The position numbers and the translations under genes are program-made. DNA of 64,000 bases, from the NCBI GenBank assembly GCA_021162685.1, contig JAGGYF010000028.1, positions 9,088 to 73,087 on the forward strand, written 5' to 3'. The stretch comes from Candidatus Iainarchaeum sp. (lineage in GTDB: Archaea > B1Sed10-29 > WALL01). Below, piece by piece: positions 12,308-64,000 of the stretch (position 1 is the first letter of the stretch; each line of letters starts with the position of its first letter). Below the pieces are notes generated by a model that saw only the letters and a program-made list of their open reading frames with translations, searched no databases and was not told where the DNA came from.

Positions 12308-12324
12308 AAGCTGGGGTCGCATAG
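12308..12324 (+). repeat. 17-bp direct duplicate of the tRNA-Ser 5' end (AAGCTGGGGTCGCATAG)
   Basis: Identical to 12384-12400. Confidence 0.95.
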
Positions 12325-12375
12325 GCCCAAATTACATATGGGCGTTCGTAGTGGGATACAAGATCCCACTATTAG
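12325..12375 (+). repeat. tRNA-linked structured repeat element, copy A
   Basis: GCCCA-AATTACATA-TGGGC hairpin + GTTCG + TAGTGGGAT-ACAAG-ATCCCACTA hairpin + TATTAG; homologous to 32047ff, 32162ff, 63855ff. Confidence 0.85.
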
Positions 12376-12385
12376 AAAACCATAA

Positions 12386-12469
12386 GCTGGGGTCGCATAG
12401 CCTGGTAGTGCGCAGGCCTGGAGAGCCTGTTTCCTTCGGGATGCGTGGGTTCAAATCCCACCCCCAGCG
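12386..12469 (+). tRNA. tRNA-Ser(GGA)
   Basis: Acceptor GCTGGGG/CCCCAGC; anticodon arm CAGGC-CTGGAGA-GCCTG; long variable arm; GTTCAAATC; G73. Confidence 0.95.
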
Positions 12470-12563
12470 CTCTACTACTGGAGCTAATAGCGCCAAGAGA
12501 ACCAAAAGCAATATAAACAATTATTGTATAAACTTATAACGTATAATTTTATAAGGTGATTGA

Positions 12564-12836
12564 ATGGCAACTGCTCAGCAAGTACTGCATTATCCAAGGC
12601 TTGACACCGTGCTCATGATAGAAGATGCAATAAAGAAGGCAGGGGAGTATCCAACGAAAACACAACTGTGGAGAAGCCTTCCGAGGCAGGTGATGTACCG
12701 CACCTTCAACCTAGTTCTTGATTACTTGGAAAGTTCTGGGAAGATTTTGATTGACACAGATGGGAGGATTGTCTGGGTGTTTGCCGACAACCCAAAGCTC
12801 AGGAAACTTATCAAGGAAAGTGTGAAGGTGCGCTGA
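12564..12836 (+). CDS. Small winged-helix-like protein, putative antitoxin
   Basis: YPRLDTVLMIE..LPRQVMYRTF..LDYLESSGKI; TGATG coupling to downstream toxin-like gene. Confidence 0.65.
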   Translation: MATAQQVLHYPRLDTVLMIEDAIKKAGEYPTKTQLWRSLPRQVMYRTFNLVLDYLESSGKILIDTDGRIVWVFADNPKLRKLIKESVKVR

Positions 12837-13180
12837 TGTACAGCGTGAAGCTGAGCCCAGAATTCAACAAAGAGTTTGCGAAGCTGCAGCAAAGAGCAGA
12901 GAAAGGTGGCGGAGAGGCCACTTATCTCATGAAAATAGTCAACAAAGGAATCTCAAGGATTGCCACGAAACTCACTGTAGGAAAGAAAGTTCCCAAAAAG
13001 CTCTGGCCAAAAGGATACATCAAAAAGTATGGCATAACTAACCTCTGGAAACTGGACTTGGACAAGCACTGGCGGATGCTTTACACGATAACCGGAGACC
13101 AGGCAGAACTCATTGGAATCGTTCTGGATGTTATGGACCACAAGAAGTACGATAGGAAATTTGGGTACAAGACCAGCTAA
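12836..13180 (+). CDS. RelE/ParE-superfamily toxin-like protein
   Basis: MYSVKLSPEF..; NLWKLDL..WRMLYTI..LDVMDHKKYDRKFGY; basic, 114 aa. Confidence 0.7.
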   Translation: MYSVKLSPEFNKEFAKLQQRAEKGGGEATYLMKIVNKGISRIATKLTVGKKVPKKLWPKGYIKKYGITNLWKLDLDKHWRMLYTITGDQAELIGIVLDVMDHKKYDRKFGYKTS

Positions 13181-13303
13181 CTCTTGGCACCGCTATACGG
13201 CATAGCGTAGCACCTGGCAATTTTCCCATAAAATTGCGTGCCCCAGCGCTCTTTAAAGAACGTAATTCAATATAAATTGTTACAAATTATGATTGGTGGT
13301 GGA

Positions 13304-13549
13304 ATGACCCAGGTTGTCGTAACACTAAACAAGGAACTAGATAAAGTAGTGGGCATAATTAAAAGCATGTACGGTTTCTCATCCAAGAACAAAGCAATAC
13401 AATTCATAATCAGGAGGGAAGCTGAGGAGCTTCTTGAGAAAGAACTAAGACCTGAGTTCGTGCAGAGGATATTGAGGTTGGAGAGAACTGGTAGGTTTAA
13501 GAAGTATGCTTCTTTAGATGAATTAAGGGATGAGGTAGAGTATGCATAA
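13304..13549 (+). CDS. Putative RHH antitoxin (DUF2683-like)
   Basis: VVGIIKSMYGFSSKNKAI..ELRPEFVQRI..SLDELR; GGTGG SD. Confidence 0.7.
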   Translation: MTQVVVTLNKELDKVVGIIKSMYGFSSKNKAIQFIIRREAEELLEKELRPEFVQRILRLERTGRFKKYASLDELRDEVEYA

Positions 13550-13602
13550 GCTTAGTTAAATTCTACGACTTTGACCACCATGATAAGGTGTATAAGAAGT
13601 AA
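13542..13602 (+). pseudogene. Internally deleted RelE-type toxin remnant
   Basis: ATG CAT AAG CTT overlapping the antitoxin stop, joined out of frame to VKFYDFDHHDKVYKK*. Confidence 0.65.
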
Positions 13603-13736
13603 ATGCTCAATTTGTATCACTACTAGGGACGGTCCACAGCGCTCTACTGTTGGATTTTTCAAATATAATTGCAATGCAACTGTTTCCCAAATATATTTAA
13701 ATACTATTACATAGGAAAAAACTGTTGGTGAGAAGA

Positions 13737-16499
13737 ATGAAAAAAGCCTTAGCAATCCTCTTGTTGGTTTGTGCTGCAGCAGCACTTCCAGACCTAGCAA
13801 TAGAACGTTTTTCTCATGAGCTAGGTGAAGATTTTACAGTAAGCTTTACTGCTGTAATTACAAACAAAGGGACTAACTCAACAGAATCCTGTATAATGGC
13901 TTTTTCCCAGGATGAAGAATGGGCAAATAATAAAATAATAACTATTGGCGCTCTTGAACCAGGCCAGTCCCAAAAAATCAACTGGCAATGGGAGTACTAT
14001 GAGCCAGGTGAAAAAAAGCCAGGCATTTTTGTTGACGCATTTAATCCTGAATGCCAATGCTATCAAGGACCTGGTCATGCTGGAAGCATTGAAGAAGAAA
14101 ACGAGGAAAACAATGTCGCTTATCTGAGTTTTGAACTTGAAGCAGAGAATAAGCCGCCAGTAGCGATACTTGCTGTTCCAGTAAGTGTTTGCTTAGAAGG
14201 AGGAGAATGCACTCCTCCTTGCTCAGTTGGCAAGCCATGCAGGTTTGATTGCTCGCAAAGCTACGACCCTGACGGCTTTATTAGCTGTTGGAGCATTGAA
14301 TTCGGTGATGGAACAGCCCAAGCGTCAGAATGCGCAGCAGAAAAAGAAAACAAGCCTGGCGTGATCGAGCACAGCTACACTAAACCAGGAATCTACGAAG
14401 TCAAACTTACTGTCACTGATAACAAGGGAGCTAGTGGTTCAGCTACCGCAGGAATACAGGTCGGTGAAGTCACCAACCAGCCACCAGTAGCAAAAATAAG
14501 GCAAGTGGGCGACTGCTATGCTTCCCAAAACTGTAATTTTGACGGGTCAAACTCTTATGATGCTGATGGGAAAATAGTGAAGTTTACTGTTGACTTTGGT
14601 GATGGTGAAACCATTTCCTCAGAAGGCAGTCCAGCAGGGTTCGGGCATTCTTATTCAAGGCCCGGCACTTACGGAGTAACCCTCACCGTATTTGATGACA
14701 AAGGAGAAAAAGGATACGATAAAATTCTTGTCGAAGTTGAAGAATCCCCACTAGAAGAAGGCGTAGTGGAACTAGCAAAATGCCTTGGAGAAAAAAGTGT
14801 CCTTTACACGAATGATGTCTGTCCATACTGCATAAAACAAAAAAGGCTTTTTGGAAACGCTTACCAGTACTTAACTGTCATGGACTGCGGCATTGACCTC
14901 TCCTTATGCAAAGAAGTGAAAGGTGTACCGACTTGGGAGATAAATGGAGTTAAATACACTGGTTACAAGTCCCTTGAAGAATTAAAGCAATTGAGTGGGT
15001 GTGGGGTTCCTGTTGAGGGATTGTATGCAAAAATCGGGGAGGAGTTTACCCTCTCAATAAACCAGCCAGTAAAAATAGTAGACTATATTGACTCCCATGC
15101 AAATCCATTGAAAATCACGCTACTAAGCATCAACCCGATCTGCCACCCTAAAGAACCGTGTCCCACTGTTATTCCTTATGCCCAAGTAAAAGCAGAGTTT
15201 AGTGGAGAAACCGAAGTGCGAAAGATTACTACTGGAAGTGAAATAAATTTATTTGGGGTTGTATTGCGCACCATTAGCGTTGACAACATAGCACCGGGGT
15301 CAGTAACGCTTGTTGTCAAAAAGCCAGGAGTTATGTACTGCGAGCCAAACGTGGAATACCATTTTACCAACAAGTGCAAGTGTCCAGAAGGAACAAACTT
15401 GGTGTGGTTAAGCCGCTCTGTTTTTGTCTGCAAGAAAGAAGAGATTGTCCATGCGCGGCTGGGTCAAGCCTTTGAACTAAAGCCCAAGCAAATAGCGAAA
15501 CTAATGGATTATAGAGTCTTGACAATGCGTTTGGACAGCATTGTTTCTTCAGAAAACAAGAAAGCGGCTATTATCACTGTATGGCCAACATATGAGAGAG
15601 TCACCTTGGTGAAAGAGGAACCAATAACAGAAAAAGCAACAATGAGGCCTGTGACAGCCACCGCAGGCAAGGTAGTGACAGGTGTAAAAGTAGTACCAAG
15701 TATTACCAAGCCTGTTGAATCCCCACCAATTGTTCCCAGGCAATACCAAGTTTTAGAAGGAGAGTCAGTTAACGTGTTTGGAGTTAGGATGATGGTTAAA
15801 GAATTAACTGAAAGGTCTGCAGTATTTGTGATAACAAAGCAGACACCTTGGACTTCATGCGACCAAGCATGCAAGCAGAAGGGTTATGCAGGAGGACACT
15901 GCTCGTCAGCATGTACAGGAGTTAGCATCGGAGAGGAGTTCTGTCCACAGCCAGTATTTGAAGCCAAAGAAGAGACACCCCCTCTTCCTCCAGTGCTGAG
16001 TTGCTGCTGCCAGCCAGAAGAAGAAACAATAAAAATTGTTATTCACAAGGGGTGGAACTTGTTCTCGATGCCTGGTGAAATAAGACCTGTATCAGAAAAG
16101 TGTGACAGCAGGAATTGGAGGGTTTTTGAGTATAACAGGGAAACAAGAAAATTTGAGGCAGTCAAATGGCCTGAGATTGGCAAGGCTTATTGGCTTTATG
16201 CTGACAAGCCCTGCACTGCAGAAGTGAGAATATCAAAACCTGTTTTGCTGGAAGAACTTGAGGGTATTTTGCCTGGTTGGAACCTCGTGCCAGTAGTTCC
16301 TGATATGATTGGAAAATCCCTTGAAGAATTAAGTGATTGTACTGGGCTGAAGGTTTACACATACGATACCAGCAGCAGGAAGTGGATAAAAGTGGATAAA
16401 ATAACAGAAGAATTCTATGGAAGGGGTCTGGCAGTAAAATCAGAGCTCAAATGCTCTTTTAACACACTGCCTTCCATTCCCCCTTTCCCAGAGGAGTGA
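13737..16499 (+). CDS. Large secreted multidomain surface protein (CARDB, 2x PKD, thioredoxin-like, Cys-rich, GWNL repeats)
   Basis: Signal peptide; IEEENEENN; SYDPDG..FGDG..HSY..PG.Y.V.LTV.D twice; CPYC..KQK..FG..GVPTW; GWNLFS/GWNLVP. Confidence 0.8.
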   Translation: MKKALAILLLVCAAAALPDLAIERFSHELGEDFTVSFTAVITNKGTNSTESCIMAFSQDEEWANNKIITIGALEPGQSQKINWQWEYYEPGEKKPGIFVDAFNPECQCYQGPGHAGSIEEENEENNVAYLSFELEAENKPPVAILAVPVSVCLEGGECTPPCSVGKPCRFDCSQSYDPDGFISCWSIEFGDGTAQASECAAEKENKPGVIEHSYTKPGIYEVKLTVTDNKGASGSATAGIQVGEVTNQPPVAKIRQVGDCYASQNCNFDGSNSYDADGKIVKFTVDFGDGETISSEGSPAGFGHSYSRPGTYGVTLTVFDDKGEKGYDKILVEVEESPLEEGVVELAKCLGEKSVLYTNDVCPYCIKQKRLFGNAYQYLTVMDCGIDLSLCKEVKGVPTWEINGVKYTGYKSLEELKQLSGCGVPVEGLYAKIGEEFTLSINQPVKIVDYIDSHANPLKITLLSINPICHPKEPCPTVIPYAQVKAEFSGETEVRKITTGSEINLFGVVLRTISVDNIAPGSVTLVVKKPGVMYCEPNVEYHFTNKCKCPEGTNLVWLSRSVFVCKKEEIVHARLGQAFELKPKQIAKLMDYRVLTMRLDSIVSSENKKAAIITVWPTYERVTLVKEEPITEKATMRPVTATAGKVVTGVKVVPSITKPVESPPIVPRQYQVLEGESVNVFGVRMMVKELTERSAVFVITKQTPWTSCDQACKQKGYAGGHCSSACTGVSIGEEFCPQPVFEAKEETPPLPPVLSCCCQPEEETIKIVIHKGWNLFSMPGEIRPVSEKCDSRNWRVFEYNRETRKFEAVKWPEIGKAYWLYADKPCTAEVRISKPVLLEELEGILPGWNLVPVVPDMIGKSLEELSDCTGLKVYTYDTSSRKWIKVDKITEEFYGRGLAVKSELKCSFNTLPSIPPFPEE

Positions 16500-16505
16500 T
16501 TGAAA

Positions 16506-16685
16506 ATGAAGTTAATTGTCTTGCTTTTGGTTTGCGCACTTTTGCTTACACTAGGGTGCGTGGAAGTGACAGAAGAAACACCATTAAATGAAACCAATGT
16601 AAGTGTTGAGGAAACAACTGGAATCCCTACGCCAACTCCAGAAATGTGGAATGAGACAGCAGAGCCACCAGAGTTGCCGTTTTAG
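16506..16685 (+). CDS. Small lipoprotein
   Basis: MKLIVLLLVCALLLTLGC lipobox; acidic/Pro tail with N-x-T/S sequons. Confidence 0.7.
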   Translation: MKLIVLLLVCALLLTLGCVEVTEETPLNETNVSVEETTGIPTPTPEMWNETAEPPELPF

Positions 16686-16732
16686 AGATTTCTTGACCCC
16701 ACTTGCGGTGTTTCTTCAACTCATAGTCAGGC

Positions 16733-17136
16733 TCATAAAACAAGCAAAATCAGACTTATTGCCCCTAGTATTACTGCAAACAACTTTGTCGTAGTCAAAC
16801 TCTCGTGAAAGAACAATATACCTCCCACAACAGCAATGATAAACGAGAGGCTTCTTATTGTGGAGACAAGTGATACTGGCCCGATATGTATCCCATATAG
16901 AAATGAAAAATATGCTATCCCCGCAACAACTCCTATCAGTATTATGAGAGGCAGTTCGTTTTTTACACCCATAATATCTGTCTTTCCGAGTATGAGTGAA
17001 AGAGCAAGAACTGTTAGAAACATAAATAATGTTATCCACGTTACGACGATGAATCTATCCCCTTTGGCAACTTGTATAATAATGTTAGGATACCATAGAG
17101 AATCATAGCAGAAACTGCGGGGATTAACCAGTTCAT
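16733..17136 (-). pseudogene. EamA/DMT-family transporter, frameshifted near 17070
   Basis: MNWLIPAVSAMILYGILTLLYK (ATG coupled to upstream TGA) continues in another frame as VAKGDRF..GPVSLVSTI..FFHESLT. Confidence 0.7.
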
Positions 17137-18269
17137 CACAACACCCCCATAAGCAATGCAATTCCTAAACCAAGTATAATTATCCCTGCTACAAGGTGCA
17201 AGTGCCTAAGCTTTCCTTTCCTCCACTTCTCAACACGCTCTGGTGACAATCCTTTGTAAACCATAAATGTTATGAAAAGCATTGGGAGAATGAATATGGC
17301 ATTATACAAAAGAAGCAACATAATTGCCAATGCCTGTGTTGCTCTTCTCGCTAATAATCCCAAAACAACAATATATGGACCACTTGTACAAGGCAACAAA
17401 AACAAACTGACAATGAACCCAATAAAGAATGCACCTGGAGCACTTGTAACTGATTTTATTATGCGTTTTAGTGTTGGCCTCCATGACTGTGGGACTTCCA
17501 TAACAAAGCCGCCACCACCATATCTCAGATAATCTTTAATGTTTAGTAAACCAACAACAACTGCAAGTGCACCTACTATATAGTAAATGGTTCGCGTTGC
17601 ACCTGCCCATTGTATTGCAGAAAATAATCCTAAACCCATCAGAAAGTAAGAGATAAATATTGCTAATGAAAAAGCAATTCCTGCTTTTAACACCCTGAAC
17701 CTATCACCAGCCACAAGGATTGTTGTAAGTAGGATAATAAGGACTGCAAATGCACACGGATTTATGGCATCAACAGCAGAACCAGCAATAACTGCTGAAA
17801 CCAGTGAAAGAAGATTAACGCCCTCAACAGGCGATACCTCTTTTGTTGTAACGAATGTTGCATTTTCTATCTTTTCTCCAGGAGATGGACAGCCATATGT
17901 GATACACTCTTTAATTGTATTTTCTATGGCTTTTGGTGTTGGTTCACCAAAGATACCACGTGGATCCCATCCAACAATGACTTTGTTACCTATAAATAAC
18001 GTAGGCACTCCTTGTATTGTTGTGTTGTATGCTTCTGCAGTCCTTTTAAACAATGCCCGGTTTGTTGTGTTTCTGTATATCTCAAATCGCTCAGCATGGA
18101 ACTCGGGGTATTTTGCCTCCATCTGCTCCAAAAAGGGCTCTTCTTTTGCACAATGCGGGCATCCTTGGCCCCAGAAGAAATATGCTGTTACATTATATGC
18201 AAAAACAGACGAAATGAGCAATAAAAGGAGGAATTTTCCCTTCATAGTATCACTCCTTTTATTAATCAA
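17136..18269 (-). CDS. Thioredoxin/glutaredoxin domain fused to CcdA/DsbD-type membrane domain
   Basis: GCPHC..GVPT; DAINPCAF; LPCTSGPY; multiple TMs. Confidence 0.85.
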   Translation of the reverse strand: MINKRSDTMKGKFLLLLLISSVFAYNVTAYFFWGQGCPHCAKEEPFLEQMEAKYPEFHAERFEIYRNTTNRALFKRTAEAYNTTIQGVPTLFIGNKVIVGWDPRGIFGEPTPKAIENTIKECITYGCPSPGEKIENATFVTTKEVSPVEGVNLLSLVSAVIAGSAVDAINPCAFAVLIILLTTILVAGDRFRVLKAGIAFSLAIFISYFLMGLGLFSAIQWAGATRTIYYIVGALAVVVGLLNIKDYLRYGGGGFVMEVPQSWRPTLKRIIKSVTSAPGAFFIGFIVSLFLLPCTSGPYIVVLGLLARRATQALAIMLLLLYNAIFILPMLFITFMVYKGLSPERVEKWRKGKLRHLHLVAGIIILGLGIALLMGVL

Positions 18270-18343
18270 CCGAAATATTTATATATAATTTTGAATATAA
18301 ATTCATTACTGTATTGAATATATATTCAAAAGGAGGTGAATAT

Positions 18344-19108: not shown

Positions 19109-19112
19109 AAAG

Positions 19113-26383: not shown

Positions 26384-28447
26384 ATGGTTATGCCTGAGAA
26401 GATACGAAAAAGGGATGGGAGTGTTGTAAAATTTGACCAGAGGAGGATAACAAAGGCCATAGAAAGAGCAATAAAAGCCATAGGAAAAAAGGATGGAAAA
26501 CTTGCTAAAAAACTCTCGGATAGGGTTGTCAAAAAACTTGGAAAGGTAAAAATCACAACAGTTGAGAGGGTACAAGACGTTGTTGAAGAAGTTTTGGTGG
26601 AGTACGGCAATGTAAAACTTGTGAGAGCGTATATTAGGTACAGATACCAACATGAAAAACTTAGAAAAACAAAGAGCCTATTTGAAGAAACCGATAAAAT
26701 CATTGATAGTTATCTGAAACAAAAGGATTGGAGAGTTAGGGAAAACAGTAACATCACGTATTCATTTGCTGGGCTCGTCATGTATGTATCAAATGCAGCA
26801 ATTGCAAACTACACTCTTGATAGAATCTATCCAGCGGAGATATCAAAAGCGCACAAATCAGGAGATATACACATACATGACTTACAGTTCGGATTAACAG
26901 GCTATTGCGCTGGTTGGTCACTAAAACAATTATTGCTTGATGGATTTGGTGGAGTTCCTGGAAGAACATCATCAAAGCCTGCAAAGCACTTTGATACCGC
27001 ATTGTTGCAGATGGTGAACTTTTTAGGTACGCTACAAAATGAATGGGCTGGAGCAATGGCATTTAGCTCTGTTGACACATACCTAGCACCATTTGTAGCC
27101 AAAGATAAACTCAGCTATAAGCAAGTACTCCAGGGCATGCAGAAGTTCATTTTCAATCTGAATATAACATCAAGGTGGGGCGGGCAGACACTATTCACAA
27201 ATGTTACATTTGATTGGAAAGCACCAGAAGACCTAAGAGAAGAGCACATTATTATCGGAGGCAAACAATTAAGGCAGACATATGGCGAGTTCCAAGATGA
27301 AATGGACATGATAAACAAGGCATTCATAGAGATCATGATGCAAGGAGATGCAAATGGAAGACCTTTCACTTTCCCAATACCAACATATAACATAACAAAA
27401 GAATTTGATTGGAATTCAGAAAATGCTGATCTACTGTTTGAGATGACAGCAAAATATGGGCTGCCCTACTTCTCAAACTTTGTTAATAGTGACTTGGATC
27501 CAAAAGATATACGAAGCATGTGCTGCCACCTCAGACTGGATTTGAGACAACTTGAGAGGAATATCACTGGTGGATTATTTGGCTCTGCTGAACTTACTGG
27601 TTCTGTTGGCGTTGTAACCATAAATATGCCAAGGATTGGGTATCTGAGCAAAGATGAGGTAGAATTTTTTGAGAGACTTGATAAACTTATGGAGATAGCA
27701 AAAAACTCATTAGAGATAAAAAGAAAGGTTGTAGCAAGAAACATGGAAAATGGGTTGTTGCCATACTCAAAACGGTATTTGGGCAGTCTAGCAAACCACT
27801 TCTCAACTATTGGTCTTGTGGGAATGAATGAGGCTTGCCTTAATCTCTTCGGAAAGGACATAAGTACCAAAAAGGGAAAAGCATTTGCTGAAAGAACATT
27901 GAAACACATGCTTGAAAGATTGAAGGATTTCCAGGAAGAAACAGGAAACCTCTACAATCTAGAAGCAACACCTGCAGAAGGGTCATCATATAGATTGGCT
28001 TATCTTGACAAAAAGAAGTATCCAAAGATCATCACAGCAAGTAAGGAAGTTCCTAGATATACAAACTCAACGTGGCTGCCTGTGGATAAAACAGACGACG
28101 TTATCTATGCGCTAAAACATCAAGAAGCATTACAAACATTGTATACTGGTGGTACTGTTTTCCATGCATTTTTTGGAGAACGATTGAATAGCGGGAAGGC
28201 ATGTAAGCGATTTGTTAAAAAGGTCATGTATAAAACAAGGATTCCATACCTAACAGTTACACCAACATTTAGTATTTGCCAGGAGCATGGATACATTGTT
28301 GGTGAAGAAAAAACCTGTCCTATATGCGGAAAAGAAACAGAGGTGTATAGTAGAGTTGTTGGATATTTCAGACCAGTAAAGGATTGGAACCCTGGGAAGC
28401 AGCAGGAATTCAAGGAGAGAAAAACATACAATCCAAAGAAGGCGTAG
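26384..28447 (+). CDS. nrdD: Anaerobic (class III) ribonucleoside-triphosphate reductase with ATP cone
   Basis: KRDG ATP cone; IHIHDL; SMCC; EATPAEG; YSRVVGYFRPV glycyl-radical motif. Confidence 0.95.
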   Translation: MVMPEKIRKRDGSVVKFDQRRITKAIERAIKAIGKKDGKLAKKLSDRVVKKLGKVKITTVERVQDVVEEVLVEYGNVKLVRAYIRYRYQHEKLRKTKSLFEETDKIIDSYLKQKDWRVRENSNITYSFAGLVMYVSNAAIANYTLDRIYPAEISKAHKSGDIHIHDLQFGLTGYCAGWSLKQLLLDGFGGVPGRTSSKPAKHFDTALLQMVNFLGTLQNEWAGAMAFSSVDTYLAPFVAKDKLSYKQVLQGMQKFIFNLNITSRWGGQTLFTNVTFDWKAPEDLREEHIIIGGKQLRQTYGEFQDEMDMINKAFIEIMMQGDANGRPFTFPIPTYNITKEFDWNSENADLLFEMTAKYGLPYFSNFVNSDLDPKDIRSMCCHLRLDLRQLERNITGGLFGSAELTGSVGVVTINMPRIGYLSKDEVEFFERLDKLMEIAKNSLEIKRKVVARNMENGLLPYSKRYLGSLANHFSTIGLVGMNEACLNLFGKDISTKKGKAFAERTLKHMLERLKDFQEETGNLYNLEATPAEGSSYRLAYLDKKKYPKIITASKEVPRYTNSTWLPVDKTDDVIYALKHQEALQTLYTGGTVFHAFFGERLNSGKACKRFVKKVMYKTRIPYLTVTPTFSICQEHGYIVGEEKTCPICGKETEVYSRVVGYFRPVKDWNPGKQQEFKERKTYNPKKA

Positions 28448-31150: not shown

Positions 31151-31923
31151 TGAGGGTAAAGGTTCTTGAAAGCAAGCCAAATAAAGTAAAGCTTCATATA
31201 AGCGGCACAAAACCCGTTATTGTTAACTCTTTAAGAAGGGCAATCCTGGGTCTAGTACCCGCGATGGCAATAACAGAGGTGAACATATACGAAAATACAT
31301 CCGTGATGTTTGATGAATATATTGCGCACAGGCTTGCAATGATTCCACTAACAACAGATTTGAAAACATATAAGATGCCAGAGGAATGCGAGGGAGGTGG
31401 ATATAATACATGTTCTGTTGATTTGAGTTTAGATGTAAGCGGACCAAAGATGGTTTATTCCTCTGATCTCAAAACAACTGACCCAAAAGTAAAACCTGTT
31501 AGTGGAAAGATACCTATTATTGAACTTCAACCAGGGCAACGCCTGAGGCTTGAGGCAAAAGCAACATTGGGTTATCCAGAAGAGCATGTGAGATGGCAGG
31601 TTGGAAACGCAGCATATAGATATGTATTTAACGTGAAGATAGGAAAGGAATGTGAGAACTGTCTTGAATGTGTTAAAGCGTGTCCAAAAAAGGTATTAAA
31701 GAAAGGAAGTAAGAAAATAGAGGTCGCAAATCCGCTAGAATGCAATGGATGTGGCATATGCAAAGAGGTATGCAAAAAGGGCGCCATTGAAATAATACCA
31801 GACACAACATCATTCATATTCACCATAGAGACAAACGGGCAGATGAGTGCGAGGGACGCACTTAACACAGCAGTAAGTGCACTCCAGAAAAAGGTCTCAG
31901 AGATGAGAGAGATAATGAAATAA
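31150..31923 (+). CDS. rpoD: DNA-directed RNA polymerase subunit D (Rpo3) with ferredoxin-like insert
   Basis: NSLRRAI; ENTSVMFDEYIAHRLAMIPL; CENCLEC/CNGCGIC. Confidence 0.95.
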   Translation: MRVKVLESKPNKVKLHISGTKPVIVNSLRRAILGLVPAMAITEVNIYENTSVMFDEYIAHRLAMIPLTTDLKTYKMPEECEGGGYNTCSVDLSLDVSGPKMVYSSDLKTTDPKVKPVSGKIPIIELQPGQRLRLEAKATLGYPEEHVRWQVGNAAYRYVFNVKIGKECENCLECVKACPKKVLKKGSKKIEVANPLECNGCGICKEVCKKGAIEIIPDTTSFIFTIETNGQMSARDALNTAVSALQKKVSEMREIMK

Positions 31924-31925
31924 AT

Positions 31926-32044
31926 GCGGGGGTGCCGGAGCCTCCCTCGTGCCTTCATTGGCACGAAGGCTCAAGTGGTCAAACGGGCAGGATTGAGGGT
32001 CCTGTGGCTTAGTGCCTGCGCGAGTTCGAAGCTCGTCCCCCGCA
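31926..32044 (+). tRNA. tRNA-Leu(GAG) with D-loop intron (~31944-31974)
   Basis: GCGGGGG/CCCCCGC acceptor; CAGGA-TTGAGGG-TCCTG; variable arm; BHB-shaped hairpin insert in D arm. Confidence 0.9.
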
Positions 32045-32241
32045 CTGACCAAATTACATATGGTCGTTCGTGGTGGGATACAAGATCCCACTTACAGCAG
32101 GAGGGGGTGTGGAATCCGAGGGTTTCCAGGGGGAACCTGGGTTCCCCATAAAGGACGCTCTGACCAAATTACATATGGTCGTTCGTGGTGTGGCATAAAG
32201 CCACACTATTAGAGGGGGATGTGCCCCCATAAAGGACGCTC
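32045..32241 (+). repeat. tRNA-linked structured repeat element, tandem copies B1 (32045-32159) and B2 (32160-32241)
   Basis: Both start CTGACCAAATTACATATGGTCGTTCGTGGTG and end CCCCATAAAGGACGCT with differing internal hairpins. Confidence 0.9.
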
Positions 32242-32273
32242 TTCGAAGCTCGTCCCCCGCACTGACCAAATTA
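32242..32273 (+). repeat. 32-bp direct duplicate of tRNA-Leu 3' end plus flank (att-like)
   Basis: TTCGAAGCTCGTCCCCCGCACTGACCAAATTA identical to 32025-32056. Confidence 0.95.
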
Positions 32274-32320
32274 AACAACCTAGAAAATCCGAGTCCGAAA
32301 GGGCGTAAGGAGGTATTGGG

Positions 32321-33718: not shown

Positions 33719-33791
33719 GGGGCCGTAGGGTAGCTTGGTATCCTACCAGCTTGGGGTGCTGGCAACCCGAGTTCAAATCTCGGCGGCCCCA
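33719..33791 (+). tRNA. tRNA-Pro(GGG)
   Basis: GGGGCCG/CGGCCCC; CCAGC-TTGGGGT-GCTGG; GTTCAAATC; conserved location after rpoN. Confidence 0.95.
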
Positions 33792-57100: not shown

Positions 57101-57216
57101 AGTATGCATTCAAAATAAAAATTGGTAAGAGAGTATTTTCAAAAACAATGGAGATGGACGATCTAATAAAGATGGTTGATAAGATGATTGTAAAGGAGAG
57201 GATTAAATGGCAGTAA
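57097..57216 (+). CDS. 39-aa small ORF (below track cutoff)
   Basis: [39 protein letters not shown]; ATGA overlap with rps15 and overlap with rps3ae start. Confidence 0.5.
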
Positions 57217-57803: not shown

Positions 57804-58478
57804 ATGTATGGGGCAGAGCTACTACTTCCCCTCATAGTAGGGATTGTAGCATATGGAACTGGTAGTTTAGACCTCCTAAGCTCTATAACTGGCATTGTTA
57901 TGGGTTATACAATCATCTTTGCAAGGGGGTTTGACTGGTTTCTTGTTCTTCTCTTCTTCTTTGTATTGAGTATTGCTGCAACCAGATATAAGTACAAAAG
58001 AAAGGAGAGATATCACGTATCCCAGAAAAAAAGAACAGTTGAAAACGTCTTAGGTAATGGTTTGGTTGCAGTTGCTTGTGCAGTCTATGGCAACATATAT
58101 GGATTCTTTGGTGCAATATCAACAGCCACATCAGATACTGTTTCATCAGAACTTGGAGTATTATCAAAAGATGACCCTATTGATATTCTCACAGGAAGAA
58201 CAGTAAGAAGAGGGGCAAATGGTGGCATATCAGTACTTGGGAACGTTGCTATGTTTGCCAGCTCATTTATACTCTCTTTGTCTGCTATTGTATTGTTCAA
58301 TGATTTCCTTTTATTCTGGATAGCATTATGGTCTGGCATCTTTGGATGCATCATTGACTCAATATTTGGCTCTTGGCTTGAGAATAAGGGCGTCATAGGG
58401 AACAGTCTTGTCAATTTCATTGCAACAGTTTTTGGCGCAGGAATGGCTATTTGGCTGAGTACAATTATATCCATGTAA
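57804..58478 (+). CDS. DUF92 (TMEM19) membrane protein
   Basis: NVLGNG; SDT.SSELG; NGGIS..G; DS.FG..LE; N..VN. Confidence 0.88.
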   Translation: MYGAELLLPLIVGIVAYGTGSLDLLSSITGIVMGYTIIFARGFDWFLVLLFFFVLSIAATRYKYKRKERYHVSQKKRTVENVLGNGLVAVACAVYGNIYGFFGAISTATSDTVSSELGVLSKDDPIDILTGRTVRRGANGGISVLGNVAMFASSFILSLSAIVLFNDFLLFWIALWSGIFGCIIDSIFGSWLENKGVIGNSLVNFIATVFGAGMAIWLSTIISM

Positions 58479-58506
58479 ACAAACATTTAAATAAACAAGA
58501 TGAATA

Positions 58507-59205
58507 ATGAGAATTATGCGAAGGATACTCAGTGGGATATCTGGGCTTGACAGGTTGCTGGAAGGGGGGTTTCCAGAAGGAAGCGCAATACTGGTCACAG
58601 GAGAGCCTGGAACTGGAAAAACATTGTTCGGATTACAATATCTATACAATGGATGTAGCAGGTATGATGAGCCAGGTGTTCTCATACAAGCAGGAGAATT
58701 TAATAGTACAATATACTGGTATGAGGAGATGATGCGCTGGAACCTTGCAGACATGCAAGACAAGAATAAACTCATGATATATGCATTTAAGCCAACTGAC
58801 TATGATAAATTCCTACCAGAATCGCTTGAAAGTGAGGTTCTCTCAAAATTAAGGAATATCCTTGTCCCAATGCATGTAAAAAGGGCGGTTATTGATGCAA
58901 TCACTCCTCTCAGTTTAGGAATGGATTTGAGTAGATACAGAAAGAGTTTGTATCTGTTAATATCGTTTATGAAAGAACTTGGTGTAACATCTGTTCTCAT
59001 CTCTGAGAGTAGTTTAAAAGAACAAATGGCAGTTGAAGAACATATCTGTGACGGGGTTATAAGAATAAAACATGAGATAGATGAAACAGGACAGTACAAC
59101 AAGCGCTTGTTGGTTGCAAAGATGGTAGCAACAAATGCACCAATGGCGTGGTATCCTGTAACTATATCCAGTAGGCTTGGTTTCTCTGTAAGGCCATTTC
59201 TGTAA
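58507..59205 (+). CDS. KaiC/RAD55-like RecA-superfamily ATPase
   Basis: SGISGLDRLLEGG; GEPGTGKT; VIDA; DGVI. Confidence 0.88.
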   Translation: MRIMRRILSGISGLDRLLEGGFPEGSAILVTGEPGTGKTLFGLQYLYNGCSRYDEPGVLIQAGEFNSTIYWYEEMMRWNLADMQDKNKLMIYAFKPTDYDKFLPESLESEVLSKLRNILVPMHVKRAVIDAITPLSLGMDLSRYRKSLYLLISFMKELGVTSVLISESSLKEQMAVEEHICDGVIRIKHEIDETGQYNKRLLVAKMVATNAPMAWYPVTISSRLGFSVRPFL

Positions 59206-59246
59206 ATAACATATTTTTATATGATAATCAACACAATAGAGTAGGC

Positions 59247-59377
59247 AGCCCCGTAGTCTAGTGGCCAAGGATGCAGGCCTTTGGAGCCTGCGACGGCGGT
59301 TCGAAAATGAGGAACCTCCAGCGGGTTCCTCATCCACCTCCAGCAACCACTGGAGTTCGAAAATCCGCCCGGGGCTA
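59247..59377 (+). tRNA. tRNA-Gln(TTG) with 58-nt T-loop intron (59306-59363)
   Basis: AGCCCCG/CGGGGCT; CAGGC-CTTTGGA-GCCTG; BHB removal restores GGCGG-TTCGAAT-CCGCC. Confidence 0.92.
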
Positions 59378-59833
59378 CTTAAACAAAATGTGTTTATTCT
59401 CAATCCTCAGCACTATAGCATACAATAAGAGCACAATCACTACTGAAGCAATCCACAGGGTATCATGAATAACAAAAGAATCTGTTATCATTGTTAGATA
59501 TACTCGTAGTATATTCCACAACAAAAATATGGGGAAGGAGAGGAGGGCATATATCACCTTTTTCTCGCTGTCTATGTTATTGGTCGCATATAATAGCGCT
59601 GCGAATATTGAAAACGAAACAATGCCTGTACATGATGAAACAATAACAAAGGCATATGTTGGTGCAACTATCATATTCCCAATAAGTTCCACATGCTTTC
59701 CAGATAATAAAAGTAAGGCATATGTTGCATGCCCAACAATTGTTTTCAGTATAGGGGTGTCAAACACAAGCAATGCAAAATACATCCCAGAAAAGAAGAT
59801 GATGAACCTTAAAGCAAATGATTTGAAGTTCAT
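59375..59833 (-). CDS. Archaeosortase/exosortase family protein
   Basis: Multi-TM with Cys (SSCTG), Arg (NILR), His (IHD) triad order. Confidence 0.8.
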   Translation of the reverse strand: MNFKSFALRFIIFFSGMYFALLVFDTPILKTIVGHATYALLLLSGKHVELIGNMIVAPTYAFVIVSSCTGIVSFSIFAALLYATNNIDSEKKVIYALLSFPIFLLWNILRVYLTMITDSFVIHDTLWIASVVIVLLLYAIVLRIENKHILFK

Positions 59834-59834
59834 A

Positions 59835-60344
59835 TCACCATGGCTCCTTCTTCAGTTTAAGTTTAAATGCAGCATAATTGAAGAGTACGTGAAGAAATGC
59901 TGTCATAACAAGTACTGTTAACACAATGCTTATTTCTGGGAATGGGATACCAACATATGTGCCAATCCAGTTAAAGAACAATGCTCCAAAAATAAAATCC
60001 CACTGGTCAAGAAGCGGTGCTGCTTCCCCTCTTTTCAGATTAAACCTCCTCTTCATAAAAGAGCCAAATGTGTCCCCAACCATAGCACCAAGTGCTAACA
60101 GAAAACCCAACAAGTAGATAGAAGCATCATTAGACACGAGCGCTTGAAACGCGCCAATCGCTGTTCCTAGTATTACTGAAAGAATAAATCCTTTTACTGT
60201 TTTTCCCCTTCCAAAAAGCGGCCGACCATCAACAAATTTTATGCCCTGGTCTATTGGCGTATTCCCCTTTAGGATAACTGCGGAACCATTAGCCACATAC
60301 GCGGGGAGGATATACCACAATGCATTTGCTATAAGTTGTATCAT
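59835..60344 (-). CDS. carS: CDP-archaeol synthase
   Basis: PAYVANG; PID.G; FGRGKT; GD..GSF.KRR; PLLDQ.DF; LKKEPW. Confidence 0.93.
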   Translation of the reverse strand: MIQLIANALWYILPAYVANGSAVILKGNTPIDQGIKFVDGRPLFGRGKTVKGFILSVILGTAIGAFQALVSNDASIYLLGFLLALGAMVGDTFGSFMKRRFNLKRGEAAPLLDQWDFIFGALFFNWIGTYVGIPFPEISIVLTVLVMTAFLHVLFNYAAFKLKLKKEPW

Positions 60345-60412
60345 ACTAGGATATTATGCACATGTTTTTTTTAACCATTATGTATATATACGCCAACTCA
60401 TTAAACAAAGGT

Positions 60413-60562
60413 ATGGCAGAATTCAAACCCACATGTCCTAAATGCTTTATAGAAAAGGGGTATACTGTCCTTCTAAGAAAGGATGGGGAAGTATTCCAGT
60501 GTCCGAACAATCCAAAACATAGATTCGTCTTGGATAACGATGGATATCTAAAACCTATCTAG
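60413..60562 (+). CDS. Small zinc-ribbon protein
   Basis: MAEFKPTCPKC..FQCPNNPKH; TATATA box upstream. Confidence 0.6.
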   Translation: MAEFKPTCPKCFIEKGYTVLLRKDGEVFQCPNNPKHRFVLDNDGYLKPI

Positions 60563-61127
60563 CCTCCTTCTCCTTTTGCTTCTCTTTTCTAATCGCTATC
60601 TCATGTGCTACCCATTCGTCCCTTGGTGTTGTTGGTGGTCTTTCAACATAGTCTGCATTTGTCATCTTGAATAGAAGGCCCTCTGGTGTTTCTATCATCC
60701 TTCCTATCATACTGTACAATGATAATGTGTCATAATTGTTCTGAATCAGCCTAACAAAGACCTTTTTATATGGCTCCTGTTCCTCACCAAATTCATTTTC
60801 ATATCCTGTTTCCAACTCAAAAGTTGTTTCAACAACAAAATCTGCACCCTCAACATTATATCTAGCAAGTATCCTTGTCTTCATGGATGTTGAAAAATAC
60901 TGATCCACCGCAGATACTGGTTTGGATATCTCAGAGATGATGTCTCCCATCCTGTAATCCGAGAGATGAAGAACAATAGGTTTATCACTTACAACCTCTA
61001 CAAGACGACCAATAAGTTGTTTCTGTTTTAGCAAGGGCAATTTGCATTCACCTATATCAATACGAATAGGGCGCTCTCTCTTCTCCTCTTTTCTCCTCCA
61101 CAAACTAAGAAATTTACCCATAGGCAT
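60555..61127 (-). CDS. Hypothetical protein
   Basis: 190-aa ORF with normal codon usage; TTTAAATA upstream. Confidence 0.6.
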   Translation of the reverse strand: MPMGKFLSLWRRKEEKRERPIRIDIGECKLPLLKQKQLIGRLVEVVSDKPIVLHLSDYRMGDIISEISKPVSAVDQYFSTSMKTRILARYNVEGADFVVETTFELETGYENEFGEEQEPYKKVFVRLIQNNYDTLSLYSMIGRMIETPEGLLFKMTNADYVERPPTTPRDEWVAHEIAIRKEKQKEKEAR

Positions 61128-61198
61128 TATAATAAAGAGGAATCATTATTTAAACATTCCCCAAAACCCTTTTATGTCTGTTTGTACTAAAAGGTATT

Positions 61199-61350
61199 GG
61201 TGTTGAAAGCGGGTCTGACGCGCGAGAGGCAAAACGTTTACGTAGCGTCCGTCCCATTGGGGGGAACGCAGCGCCCGACGGAACCGAAAGGGAGTTGCTT
61301 GCGTTGGACGCACCTTAAGCTCCGACGCGATGAGGCCCGCCAACATAACT
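61199..61350 (+). ncRNA. Unidentified GC-rich structured RNA enclosed by a BHB motif
   Basis: GC-rich island in AT-rich intergenic DNA; terminal helix GCGGGTCT/AGGCCCGC; GGT-GTTG-AAA ... CAAC-ATA-ACT BHB; TATA-like TTTTATGT ~61170. Confidence 0.7.
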
Positions 61351-61360
61351 TCTTATCTGT

Positions 61361-62137
61361 GTGAGTATAATGATAGGTATTGTCTTTTCTGAGAAGGATA
61401 TGGCAGCAAATACCATGTTTCCGTTCTTTATTGAACATGGTTTCCAGGAATACAGAAGTAACATCTGGAAGATGGATGATATATTCCTAATAAGAATAGG
61501 GCAGGACATCATCTTTCCAAAGGAACTTGATGTATTCGCAGAACAACTCAACCTAGAGTATATTGTCATGGCATCAAGACATAAATCTAAGTCAGAAAAA
61601 CCAACGTTAACTGTGCATGCCACAGGAAACTTTGGAGATGCTGACTTTGGTGGAAGACCAAAAGAACTTCAGTTAACAATCGCAAATCCCATGCGTAATG
61701 TATATCTTGAGATGAGAAACTGCACTCTTGATTACACGGTTTCAAGAGAGGCAACACATCATGGTCCAACAGAATTCAATGTGCCACTATTCTTTGCTGA
61801 ACTTGGAAGTTCTGAAAAGCAATGGAAAGACGAAGAAGCAGCATCCTTCCTTGTTGATTGCATCATAAAAGGGATAAGGAAAAATAAAAAGGCAGAAGTA
61901 GCCATAGCATTTGGAGGAGGACATTACTGCCCAAAGTTCTCCGAGATGAATGAAATCGCATTTGGCCATATTGCTGCAAAATATGCTGTTGACCTACTTG
62001 ATGAAGCCCTTGTAAAGCAGATGGTTGACAAAACATATGAACATGTTGATTTTGCCATTTTGGATGAAAAAGGGTTGAAAGGAAGGCAAAAGACGCATAT
62101 AAAGTCTCTATTGTCTGAGATTGGTATAGAATATTAG
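61361..62137 (+). CDS. dtdA: D-aminoacyl-tRNA deacylase (archaeal DTD2)
   Basis: ASRH.S; LTVHATGN; EATHHGPT; ELGS; GGGHY; GHI. Confidence 0.92.
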   Translation: MSIMIGIVFSEKDMAANTMFPFFIEHGFQEYRSNIWKMDDIFLIRIGQDIIFPKELDVFAEQLNLEYIVMASRHKSKSEKPTLTVHATGNFGDADFGGRPKELQLTIANPMRNVYLEMRNCTLDYTVSREATHHGPTEFNVPLFFAELGSSEKQWKDEEAASFLVDCIIKGIRKNKKAEVAIAFGGGHYCPKFSEMNEIAFGHIAAKYAVDLLDEALVKQMVDKTYEHVDFAILDEKGLKGRQKTHIKSLLSEIGIEY

Positions 62138-62145
62138 GTGTTTAT

Positions 62146-62649
62146 ATGGACATTGAAAAGATAATAAGGGTTACAGACCTGAAAGATGTGGAGAGGAGAG
62201 GATGGAAGCGATTTGATATAAAGCATGTGGAATCTGTTGCAGACCACACGTTTGGTGTTGCTATGCTCGCACTGATTTTATGCCCAGATAATCTTAACAG
62301 GGACAAACTAGTAAGAATGGCATTAATACACGACCTAGCAGAAATTGAAACAGATGATATAACACCATTTGATAAGGAATCAGAACACAAACATGTACTT
62401 GAGCAAGCAGCAATGAAAAAGCTATTTGAAAATGATATTATTTTTGATTTATGGGAAGAATATAGTCAAGGAACATCTGAAGAAGCAATGTTCCTGAAAG
62501 AACTTGATAAACTTGATATGGCCATACAAGCATTAAAATACGAAAAGAGATATAATGTGGACCTAACAGAATTCTTTGAGGACGCAAAACAGAATATAAA
62601 AACTCCACATCTTGTTGAAGCATTAGACCTCATCACCAAGAGGAGATGA
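62146..62649 (+). CDS. HD-domain hydrolase (YfbR/HDDC2-like)
   Basis: LK...R.GW; ESVADH; HDLAE; DKLDM. Confidence 0.9.
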   Translation: MDIEKIIRVTDLKDVERRGWKRFDIKHVESVADHTFGVAMLALILCPDNLNRDKLVRMALIHDLAEIETDDITPFDKESEHKHVLEQAAMKKLFENDIIFDLWEEYSQGTSEEAMFLKELDKLDMAIQALKYEKRYNVDLTEFFEDAKQNIKTPHLVEALDLITKRR

Positions 62650-62653
62650 ACAT

Positions 62654-63643
62654 ATGGTAAAAAAGCAAGATATAGAAAGTGAGCTGAAAAAAATAAGGGA
62701 GGAGATGGAAGAGCTTGAAGGAGTTATAGAGAGAACGGGAAAGACTGTTGATAAGGTTATTGAGAACACAAAAGAAATGCACCCGGGTTTAAGTGAGGAA
62801 GAGATAAGAAAAAGGTTACTCAGAGGGTTTCCAATAGGAAATAAAAAGGTATACGTTGGAGTTTATGTAGATGCTGATCATGAAAAAGTGCCACAATACG
62901 AAATAGAGACCATGAGTAGGGAGATAGCGGAGTTTATCCTCCATGAAACTGAAAAGCATGTGAGCGCATTGGAAAGGATGAGAGAACTGGAAAAAAGGGA
63001 AGCAGAATTAACAAAAAAACTTGAAGAGTTTGAGGAAAGAAAGGAAGGAGTTAGCAGAAGGATGGGAGAAATTGACAAAGAAATCAGGAACATTGAATTA
63101 GAGAGGGAAAAACTATCAAAAGAATTTGAGAAATTGTTAAAACACAACATGCAGAGCTACAAAGCACTAAACGAGATACAAGAAGGTTTGTTGAAGAAGA
63201 TAAAGAAGATGGGGCTAGATGAGAAAACAATGAAAGCATTAGAGTATGAATTCAATGCGGTAACGAAGCATCCGTTATGGAAACACATACGTGATGTAAG
63301 ACTGGACATTGATAGAGGCATTATACCAGACGAGAGAATCATAGATGAAATAATTGAGATAGGAAAGGATGTACCAGAAGAGGGAGTAACATATAAACAT
63401 GAAGGTATTATAAAGAAATTCGGAGAAGGAGGTTTCCCTACACTAAGGGAACATGGAGAAACATTTAAAGAAGTGCTGAAAACCATACGTAGGGTAAACG
63501 AGCTGAAGCAAAGGGCAGAAGAATACTCTAAAAAGACATTGGCATTGCACACTAGATTAATAAATGAGAATAAAAGGAGGATGGATACAATTAAAGAATT
63601 GAAAAAGAAAAGGGAGAAACTTGCCAGGAGACTGGCCAGATAA
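62654..63643 (+). CDS. Coiled-coil hypothetical protein
   Basis: 329-aa E/K-rich heptad pattern. Confidence 0.7.
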   Translation: MVKKQDIESELKKIREEMEELEGVIERTGKTVDKVIENTKEMHPGLSEEEIRKRLLRGFPIGNKKVYVGVYVDADHEKVPQYEIETMSREIAEFILHETEKHVSALERMRELEKREAELTKKLEEFEERKEGVSRRMGEIDKEIRNIELEREKLSKEFEKLLKHNMQSYKALNEIQEGLLKKIKKMGLDEKTMKALEYEFNAVTKHPLWKHIRDVRLDIDRGIIPDERIIDEIIEIGKDVPEEGVTYKHEGIIKKFGEGGFPTLREHGETFKEVLKTIRRVNELKQRAEEYSKKTLALHTRLINENKRRMDTIKELKKKREKLARRLAR

Positions 63644-63747
63644 GCGGGGGTGGCGGAGTGGAGAAAAGAGGTACCAAAATTATTCTGAAATTAAACTCCA
63701 CATATATATCTAAACGTAAAGAAAGACTGGAGATATTCAAAGAGCTT

Positions 63748-63852
63748 GCAGGGGTACCAAAGCGGTCTAATGGGCTGGATTCAGGTAGAGGGTAGCCTCT
63801 GGAAACGTCCAGTGGCTTAGTGCCTTCGGGGGTTCGAATCCCCTCCCCTGCA
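63748..63852 (+). tRNA. tRNA-Leu(CAG) with canonical 37/38 intron (63786-63806)
   Basis: GCAGGGG/CCCCTGC; CTGGA-TTCAGG[intron]G-TCCAG; variable arm identical to Leu(GAG); GTTCGAATC. Confidence 0.93.
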
Positions 63853-64000
63853 CTGACCAAATTACATATGGTCGCTCACAGCTCCTTTCTTTTTAGAAAA
63901 AAGAAAGTAGTTGGCAGTCAAAGAAAAACTAATTTTCTCTTCTCTCCGAGAAGCATATTACTGTGTGCTTTCAGTCCTGCTATTAGGGGGGTGTGGAATC
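63853..64000 (+). repeat. tRNA-linked structured repeat element, copy C (runs off window)
   Basis: CTGACCAAATTACATATGGTCG immediately after discriminator; ends TATTAGGGGGGTGTGGAATC matching 32102-32116. Confidence 0.85.

Follow-up and report, generated by a model that had tools for sequence, protein, structure and literature searches.

Hairpin elements that recur beside transfer RNA (tRNA) genes in a small archaeal genome raise the question of whether they belong to the RNA genes that they adjoin or are DNA that was inserted there. The elements lie in a stretch of 64,000 nucleotides from Candidatus Iainarchaeum sp. (the window; JAGGYF010000028.1, G000:C15:9088-73087), whose end is the end of contig C15. 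G000 denotes the genome of the window (1.11 Mb, 45 contigs, 98.4% complete), and G001-G009 denote genomes of relatives. A first-pass annotation, made from the letters of the window alone, had placed four copies at three tRNA genes, and the same four were found again, at the genes for tRNA-Ser(GGA), tRNA-Leu(GAG), and tRNA-Leu(CAG). The motif CCAAATTACATATGG occurs at positions 12327, 32049, 32164, and 63857 against 0.27 expected occurrences, and four were reached in none of 100 shuffles. The window hairpins are only part of a larger system of four modules, which are inserted between duplicated target segments, prefer stable-RNA genes, conserve their structure, and are distributed at the level of archaeal families. 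These observations support mobility of the modules, while HUH, reverse transcriptase, and ribozyme mechanisms are not supported. With slightly better than even confidence, we read the modules as non-autonomous, hairpin-rich mobile DNA that lacks terminal inverted repeats and inserts at stable-RNA genes with long target duplications of variable length.

The four modules of G000, designated H1-H2, H3, A, and M, are joined head to tail in changing combinations, giving mosaics of 60-420 nt; the recurring linker words and module swapping described for the window were seen across the G000 copies. The H1 loop, said to be invariant, is identical in 16 of the 18 copies of the genome, but the copy on C17 has a substitution and that on C20 a 2-nt insertion. 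The H1 stem comes in two sub-families, GACCA/TGGTC (nine copies) and GCCCA/TGGGC (eight copies), and H2 in two or three types. Covariation of both stems was confirmed: among the 13 copies (11 distinct) in which both hairpins are retained, 97.2% of cells are paired, four pairs are altered on both sides, and the covariation score was reached by none of 500 shuffles; slid-register controls pair at 27-56%. Since the H1-H2 variants form only two or three sub-families, these changes represent few independent compensatory events. H3 consists of two covarying hairpins ending in (A)UA(A/G)GGACGCU, and also has a long form, with an extra hairpin of ~60 nt, and a short form, with a single hairpin. In an alignment fitted to the H3 covariance model (34 matches, 30 distinct sequences), 96.2% of cells are paired, and six of 12 pairs are altered on both sides. 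The pairing of H1-H2 and of H3 bears out the earlier suggestion that structure is conserved. Modules A and M both start with oligo-T hairpins. The ends of the composite elements (CTGACCAAATTA... and ...AAAGGACGCT) are not inverted copies of each other, and neither are those of H3 (GGAGGGGG... and ...GACGCT). As a separate observation, G-runs make up most of the invariant H3 positions (GGGG-T-GGG-N7-GGG-N6-GGGGG, for example at G000:C12:4650-4712 (-)), and the commonest H3 variant would, on paper, also fit a G-quadruplex motif of the hairpin-bearing strand.

Motif matches in G000 group into 21 clusters, of which 14 are at most 200 nt from a tRNA or 5S rRNA gene; in 2000 random placements, the mean was 0.43 and the maximum was 4. 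The gene list used comprised 35 Rfam tRNA matches plus four entries added by hand, the 5S gene being Rfam-confirmed. Clusters on C34 and C41 start at contig starts with orphan tRNA 3' ends. The claim that no copy lies away from tRNAs holds within the window but not genome-wide, where five of the 21 clusters are at protein-gene ends (Table 1) and one is behind 5S rRNA. Targeting of tRNA genes, also proposed from the window, is thus real as an enrichment but is shared with 5S rRNA, RNase P RNA, and protein-gene ends; the modules are strongly, though not exclusively, aimed at stable-RNA genes. Most tRNA genes carry no modules, for example that for tRNA-Pro at window position 33719.

Two observations concern the protein-gene sites. 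At G000:C3:4768-5193 (+), a 142-codon open frame leads from a pilin-like start (MQKAISPIVS...) through a module array of ~420 nt into a duplicated continuation of the gene; as the array parts the start codon from the gene body, the gene may be inactivated or N-terminally extended. Large paralogous adhesin/pilin-like genes at G000:C24:1-1878, C41:22538-22865, and C31:1-285 have ends that are 95-98% identical and break the assembly, and in these paralogues H1-H2 directly follows the stop codons, with the last ~45 coding bases duplicated.

Exact duplications of tRNA ends, of 17 and 32 bp, had been reported for the window and are present there (Table 1). Overall, duplications vary in length from 11 to 56 bp. 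In G000, exact target repeats of 11-32 nt bracket the modules in 12 of 18 clusters examined, and several reach 31-41 nt by manual reading when mismatches are allowed. In relatives, an exact flanking repeat of 13-47 nt was present at 10 of the 18 H3 copies inspected, and one further case has 56 nt. Read manually, repeats on the 3' side of tRNA genes begin within the T-loop (T54 or A58) and extend beyond the 3' end, in many cases across the T-rich trailer, and those on the 5' side run from upstream DNA to D-loop position 15-17. One boundary of a duplication is usually in loop-encoding DNA (T-loop 53-58, D-loop 15-17, or the H1 or H2 loops) and the other lies beyond the gene end, leaving an orphan gene end; duplications of 5' ends are as common as those of 3' ends. 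Module M was found inside an H2 loop with a 14-nt duplication, and three sites show a break within the H1 loop (window 32273 and the truncated C14 and C24 copies). The gene survives, since one duplication copy always makes it complete. For this survival the duplication need not begin in a loop, so such starts look mechanistic rather than selected. The same H3 lies between differing duplications at genes for tRNA-Pro, Gln, Cys, His, Ser, Arg (two cases), Leu, and others. The duplicated tRNA ends are long, variable target-site duplications, and not a fixed feature of the element.

Two regularities of these sites were considered and set aside. A polarity rule, by which the GACGCT end faces the loop-side break, fits most simple cases and fails at C32, at G002:C5, and at both G005 sites. 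Guide-like matching between the H3 loop (CCCAGGGTAGCC) and the tRNA D-arm is striking at the tRNA-Pro gene of G007, and the same H3 variant is present at unrelated targets.

At tRNA-Leu, His, Gln, Cys, and others, the repeats span the T-loop to the 3' end, which is the classical footprint of integration targeted to tRNA genes and is also described in PMC2853133. The sites could accordingly be scars of site-specific integration, at which virus or plasmid integrases duplicated an att core and later deletions left the element ends, i.e., the modules, between attL and attR. The genes for tRNA-Leu on C20 and C17, where three to four serial copies of the 3' end are separated by a different module each, agree with such a history. 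However, duplications of at least eight different tRNAs, of RNase P RNA flanks, and of protein-gene ends enclose one and the same 56-60-nt H3, and since the flanking repeats of the same H3 differ from site to site, the duplicated segment cannot be a fixed attP. The spread of duplication lengths, the equal frequency of 5'-end duplications, and identical duplication-plus-H3 units in tandem, several arrays of which occur in relatives, also speak against integration. No PF00589 candidate was present in G000, where SSV-type integrases were not searched separately, and the H3 and H1 patterns were absent from the viral contigs searched. With one element between many different duplications and no integrase, scars of this type fit poorly and are very unlikely.

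The conserved pairing of the modules, their persistence across a family, and their position next to RNA genes could also reflect a function, the modules being selected as terminators, as hairpins for processing or stabilisation, or as small RNAs that are linked to tRNAs and freed by RNase P or RNase Z, and being spread by gene conversion and tandem duplication. Consistent with this, the oligo-T hairpins of M and A lie right behind the 3' ends of tRNA and 5S genes, H1 copies at tRNAs are co-oriented with them, and in four Leu genes CTGACC directly follows the discriminator. The element had been described as starting one base after the discriminator in the Leu genes; in fact, the shared unit CTGACC begins immediately 3' of discriminator A in both window genes (32044 and 63852), with the stem G three bases beyond that A. 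H3, in contrast, is found in both orientations relative to tRNA and can flank a gene on either side, different genomes have modules at non-orthologous positions, most tRNA genes are module-free, and one array interrupts the start of a pilin-like gene. On module DNA, Rfam gave no match at gathering score (tRNA, 5S, and RNase P RNA were the only families matched); at E <= 5, weak matches overlap the modules, with scores far under the gathering score of each family. The fold energy of element E1 (z = -1.6) is not informative. Moreover, gene conversion creates no duplications of unrelated targets. Because of the two orientations of H3, the non-orthologous positions, and the lack of an Rfam match, a purely functional RNA fits poorly, and we regard this explanation as unlikely; the co-transcribed ribozyme or processing RNA envisaged earlier is not supported, given the orientations, the Rfam result, and the fold energy. 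Judged by their position and oligo-T hairpins, some M and A modules directly behind tRNA genes have probably been taken over as terminators.

The H1 motif has no true copy in 40 relatives, where three matches with one mismatch lack the rest of the element, and was found in none of the public genome, viral, or metagenome collections searched. A BLAST match revealed H3 in two relatives, and a covariance model built from nine copies was then used to scan 31 genomes of the class. H3 was present in eight of them: all six of family f1, two of four of family f3, and none of 21 elsewhere. The H3 core was also present in GTDB records titled Candidatus Iainarchaeum, Micrarchaeota, Nanobdellati, or "archaeon" and in five metagenome contigs, and was absent from the viral contig collection. 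An ARAGORN tRNA was located within 260 nt of nine of the 18 H3 copies inspected in relatives (one spurious call excluded), and one H3 in G002 abuts the RNase P RNA gene. Among 12 other genomes of the order, including five others of f1, module M was found in four f1 relatives and module A in two. Read by eye, the relatives have a different hairpin pair upstream of H3, in the same layout as H1-H2. A side observation from the same genomes concerns G002:C1:65530-65680 and G003:C32:2500-2720, where H3 sits in a conserved non-coding stretch (GGCTCAGAAGCTACTCCGA... TGGGGCG(A/G)TATCATCA...) with duplications of 21 and 33 nt; the stretch gave no Rfam match at gathering score and may be an unannotated stable RNA.

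Comparison of orthologous sites revealed empty ones. At tRNA-His, G002 has A and H3 between copies of the segment from T-loop to trailer, plus a further module and orphan, and its congener G005, the tRNA of which is 99% identical, has a bare trailer. At the same gene, module M is in the D-loop with a 56-nt duplication in G004, and nothing is downstream in G001 and G003. The site between rpoD, tRNA-Leu, and L18e, occupied in the window, was represented by 11 loci in relatives. ARAGORN found tRNA-Leu in seven of these (gag in six, tag in one) and manual reading found a tRNA in nine, two further loci being cut short; none of the nine contains modules by manual reading. Module positions are not orthologous between genomes. 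The empty orthologous sites, the bracketing duplications, and the absence of a coding repeat in G000 agree with the first-pass annotation that the elements are non-autonomous inserted DNA.

Mis-joined repeats in metagenome assemblies could mimic duplicated tRNA ends, and many copies do lie at contig ends, the public runs providing ~5x depth and fragmented contigs. The same architecture was, however, observed inside long contigs, and also in independent assemblies from other genera, among them metagenome-assembled genomes and a single-cell genome; the exact duplications moreover keep register with tRNA structure. An assembly artefact is hardly credible.

An HUH/Y1 enzyme, a recombinase, or a reverse transcriptase had been suggested as the partner acting in trans, and none was found in G000. 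PF01797 (Y1 HUH) had no matches, PF01867 (Cas1) had none, the best PF00078 (RVT_1) match (E = 0.145) was sub-threshold and lay within a 3631-aa frame, and rve reached only E = 0.0117, below the cut-off. A TnpB lead was rejected: the best PF07282 match is a zinc ribbon ending an unrelated 479-aa frame, the other six being weaker and uninspected. The sole transposase candidate, an IS5-like DDE gene at G000:C37:27709-28809 (-), scored 74 bits against the NCBIfam IS5_2 model (cut-off, 140) and only 21.5 bits against the IS1634 model, and lies beside ftsZ and an Spt5/NusG-like gene; possible inverted repeats of 15 nt were noted at positions 2079-2093 and 3408-3422 of locus L102. The gene is present in only two of 30 other genomes of the class, a pattern unlike that of H3.

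The features of the module ends bear on retroposition, in which a structured H1-H2-H3 RNA of ~115-170 nt would be copied by target-primed reverse transcription in the manner of short interspersed nuclear elements (SINEs), with variable duplications, 5' truncations, and template-switch mosaics as the outcome. The conserved 3' end (GACGCT plus 0-4 extra nt) with variable or truncated 5' ends, microhomology of 4-5 nt read manually at two 5' junctions (C36 and C12 4650), the variable duplication length, and three H1 copies that begin mid-loop are of the expected kind. Yet both element ends occur facing the loop-side break, no reverse transcriptase was found at the RVT_1 threshold, and we know of no non-long-terminal-repeat retroelement in archaea. 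The lack of a reverse transcriptase makes this route highly improbable.

Several points weigh against mobile modules. No mobilising enzyme was recognised in the 98.4%-complete G000, in which Y1_Tnp, Phage_integrase, Cas1, IS110, and resolvase models were all unmatched. The IS5-like gene was rejected as a partner, being single-copy, with ends unlike those of the modules, and not co-distributed with H3. Self-comparison of G000 revealed no autonomous copy: no repeat exceeds 710 bp and none is coding, and every H3 5' half has a 3' end within ~120 nt, so that no autonomous partner is visible. One may reside on an unbinned virus or plasmid. Classical transposons have terminal inverted repeats and a fixed duplication length, both of which the modules lack. 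The 32-nt duplication at tRNA-Leu(GAG) takes in 12 nt of H1, which requires a second event or another origin, and simple repeated insertion does not account for head-to-tail dimers that have no duplication between their units. By manual reading, H1-bearing copies at tRNAs are in the tRNA orientation in 13 of 13 cases, which could point to an RNA role. Finally, movement was not viewed directly: the within-population data were fragmented Logan contigs at ~5x, which yielded no sign of polymorphism. The stretch used for the Logan comparison ended at 32289, so that an empty tRNA-Leu site could not show. One contig of run X5 is identical to 31797-32044 and then diverges from the reference, and a joint between 32213 and 32099 is a junction present in other genomic copies, such as that on C24.

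If the modules are mobile, insertion would begin with a staggered double-strand break at structured, highly transcribed DNA; both sides of the break would be filled in and a module joined or copied between them, and units of duplication plus module would later be amplified into tandem arrays. The catalyst might be host replication and repair enzymes that work on hairpins once these are extruded, or else an enzyme that is encoded in trans or has escaped recognition. A bolder proposal is that DPANN archaea possess a previously undescribed form of DNA movement, in which hairpin modules move without a canonical transposase, integrase, or reverse transcriptase, either through breaks in the single-stranded loops that form when highly transcribed stable-RNA genes extrude cloverleaf or hairpin DNA, followed by fill-in of the long staggered break so that the gene is restored, with structure and not terminal sequence as the signal, or through a wholly unrecognised enzyme family. 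We consider this rather doubtful.

Table 1. Coordinates of the modules, duplications, and tRNA genes of the window, and the protein-gene clusters of G000 (window positions unless a contig is given).
Feature	Position	Strand	Remarks
Orphan copy of target duplication	12308-12324	+	2 nt upstream plus tRNA-Ser positions 1-15, stopping within the D-loop; exact repeat of 12384-12400
H1-H2 module, GCCCA/TGGGC sub-family	12325-12383	+	H1 12325-12343, GTTCGT linker, H2 12350-12370, ATTAGAAAACCAT tail
tRNA-Ser(GGA), intact	12386-12470	+	ARAGORN; Rfam 57.2 bits; first 15 nt are the second duplication copy
tRNA-Leu(GAG), D-loop insert (intron) of ~35 nt	31926-32044	+	Sequence read; rpoD-tRNA-Leu-L18e position
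32-nt duplication, first copy	32025-32056	+	T-loop to tRNA 3' end, then CTGACCAAATTA
Element E1 (full)	32045-32159	+	CT, H1 (32047-32065), GTTCGT, H2, linker, H3
H3 of element E1	32100-32159	+	Ends GACGCT; covariance-model match G000:C15:41187-41246, 68.6 bits
Element E2, head to tail behind E1	32160-32240	+	H1 (32162-32180), second H2 variant, short H3 (single hairpin plus ATAAAGGACGCT)
32-nt duplication, orphan second copy	32242-32273	+	tRNA-Leu T-loop to 3' end, then half H1 broken in loop
tRNA-Leu(CAG), two inserts (D-loop and anticodon-loop introns)	63644-63852	+	Sequence read; Rfam tRNA 3' part at G000:C15:72835-72939
CT, H1, module A, CTATTAG, first 14 nt of H3	63853-64000	+	H1 63855-63873; A 63879-63965, oligo-T hairpin
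Protein-gene clusters, adhesin-like gene 3' end	C24, C31		
Protein-gene cluster, TatD-like gene start	C13		
Protein-gene cluster, pilin-like gene start	C3		
Protein-gene cluster, start of another gene	C36		

ARAGORN reported only two tRNAs in the window and missed both intron-bearing tRNA-Leu genes; that for tRNA-Leu(GAG) was missed by ARAGORN and Rfam owing to its D-loop insert. This gene lies within a conserved gene order, rpoD-tRNA-Leu-L18e-L13-S9. Its identification, read from the sequence, is backed by the orthologues that ARAGORN called at this site in relatives, and that of tRNA-Leu(CAG) is backed in part by Rfam. The E1/E2 stretch behind tRNA-Leu(GAG) contains internal repeats of 52 nt and 18 nt, and past the orphan duplication copy lies the native L18e leader; relatives show the native spacer and the leader motif as well. 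In the window (32274-32320) and in the loci of relatives, a conserved CCGAGT, a short hairpin, and GCGTAAGGAGG precede L18e in several genomes of the order, and this motif may be a ribosomal-protein operon leader. The copy at 63855 is incomplete because the window stops at the contig end. Elsewhere in the window, positions 26384-28447 encode an anaerobic ribonucleotide reductase, NrdD, with an ATP-cone domain; contigs of several runs have many joints and high depth there, probably reflecting conserved segments common to other organisms.

If the modules are indeed mobile, they would extend the poorly understood insertions with long target duplications to an archaeal, non-coding case, and dozens of small, recent, and comparable events would make the mechanism tractable. 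Even archaeal genomes of the most reduced kind (~1.1 Mb and essentially free of insertion sequence (IS) elements) could then host a persistent mobile family, one that remodels the DNA flanking tRNA, 5S, and RNase P RNA genes, provides apparent terminators, and leaves orphan tRNA ends. The D-loop and T-loop positions common to modules and tRNA introns would provide a testable link to the origin of introns and split tRNAs. In practice, the repeats fragment this lineage's assemblies at tRNA loci and can mislead the annotation of tRNAs.

A literature search, whose reach did not extend to supplements, turned up no description of these elements; PMC5905446 describes an ordinary 1.5-kb transposase in another Diapherotrite. 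Casposons differ from the modules, for which no Cas1 match was found and whose duplications are variable rather than fixed at ~14-15 bp. Palindrome-associated transposable elements (PATEs) derived from IS200/IS605 differ as well, since Y1_Tnp is absent, the best PF07282 match is unrelated, and the modules do have target duplications.

The repetitive extragenic palindromes (REPs) and bacterial interspersed mosaic elements (BIMEs) of enterobacteria are mobilised by RAYT, a Y1 HUH transposase. Like them, the modules are short, non-coding, hairpin-forming units that build intergenic mosaics at gene ends, have many copies, and show compensatory stem changes. Unlike them, they reside in a genome without Y1_Tnp/RAYT, and REPs have neither long target duplications nor a preference for tRNA loops. 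Among IS families, the IS1634 group makes long duplications. The modules share with MITEs (miniature inverted-repeat transposable elements) and with the few IS families that have long variable duplications a non-autonomous, short, multi-copy nature, but they possess no terminal inverted repeats, no short fixed duplication, and no related autonomous IS with matching ends. For IS1630, duplications of 19-26 bp are cited in PMC2853133. Elements that integrate at tRNA genes, and their cis-mobilisable remnants, likewise leave an orphan tRNA 3' part that starts at the T-loop and serial orphans at one tRNA; they differ from the modules, which have no integrase, duplicate a different segment at each site, and are found at 5' ends, at RNase P RNA, and at protein genes as well.

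The mobile non-canonical tRNA introns known from Thermoproteales are related short structured sequences at D- and T-loop positions of many tRNA genes of one lineage. G000 also has D-loop and anticodon-loop introns at comparable positions, but the modules differ in that duplication of the gene end leaves them outside the mature tRNA. At module junctions inspected by eye, with no dedicated tool run, the intron-side sequences are not complementary and no bulge-helix-bulge pairing was seen. As to the introns themselves, inserts at non-canonical positions (D-loop after ~16, anticodon loop) were noted at window 31926-32044 and 63644-63852, and at G000:C26:66180-66310 and G000:C16:969-1107. The ~62-nt insert of the tRNA-His-like gene on C26 has two hairpins, one with the 11-mer GGCATAAAGCC of H2; this word occurs seven times in G000, six times in H2 and once in that insert, one extra match that is not significant alone. 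A AAGAAGGGGTTTCACCCCTTTCT-like hairpin recurs in inserts of the G000 tRNAs on C16 and C26 and in the tRNA-Leu T-loop at loci L025 and L029 (G006 and G009); its presence in different tRNAs and genera suggests a related tRNA intron family.

Insertion with long target duplication stands beside the REP/BIME mosaics as the closest known pattern. PMC2853133 delimits the class by duplications of >30 bp, a threshold reached by about half of the cases here. The insertions described in PMC2853133 are bacterial, carry kilobase-sized restriction-modification cargo, and have duplications of 30 to over 400 bp. The two kinds of insertion share long, variable target repeats and an insert with no transposase or integrase; the modules stand apart as archaeal, non-coding hairpins of 56-420 nt that form one recurring family and are targeted to stable RNAs.

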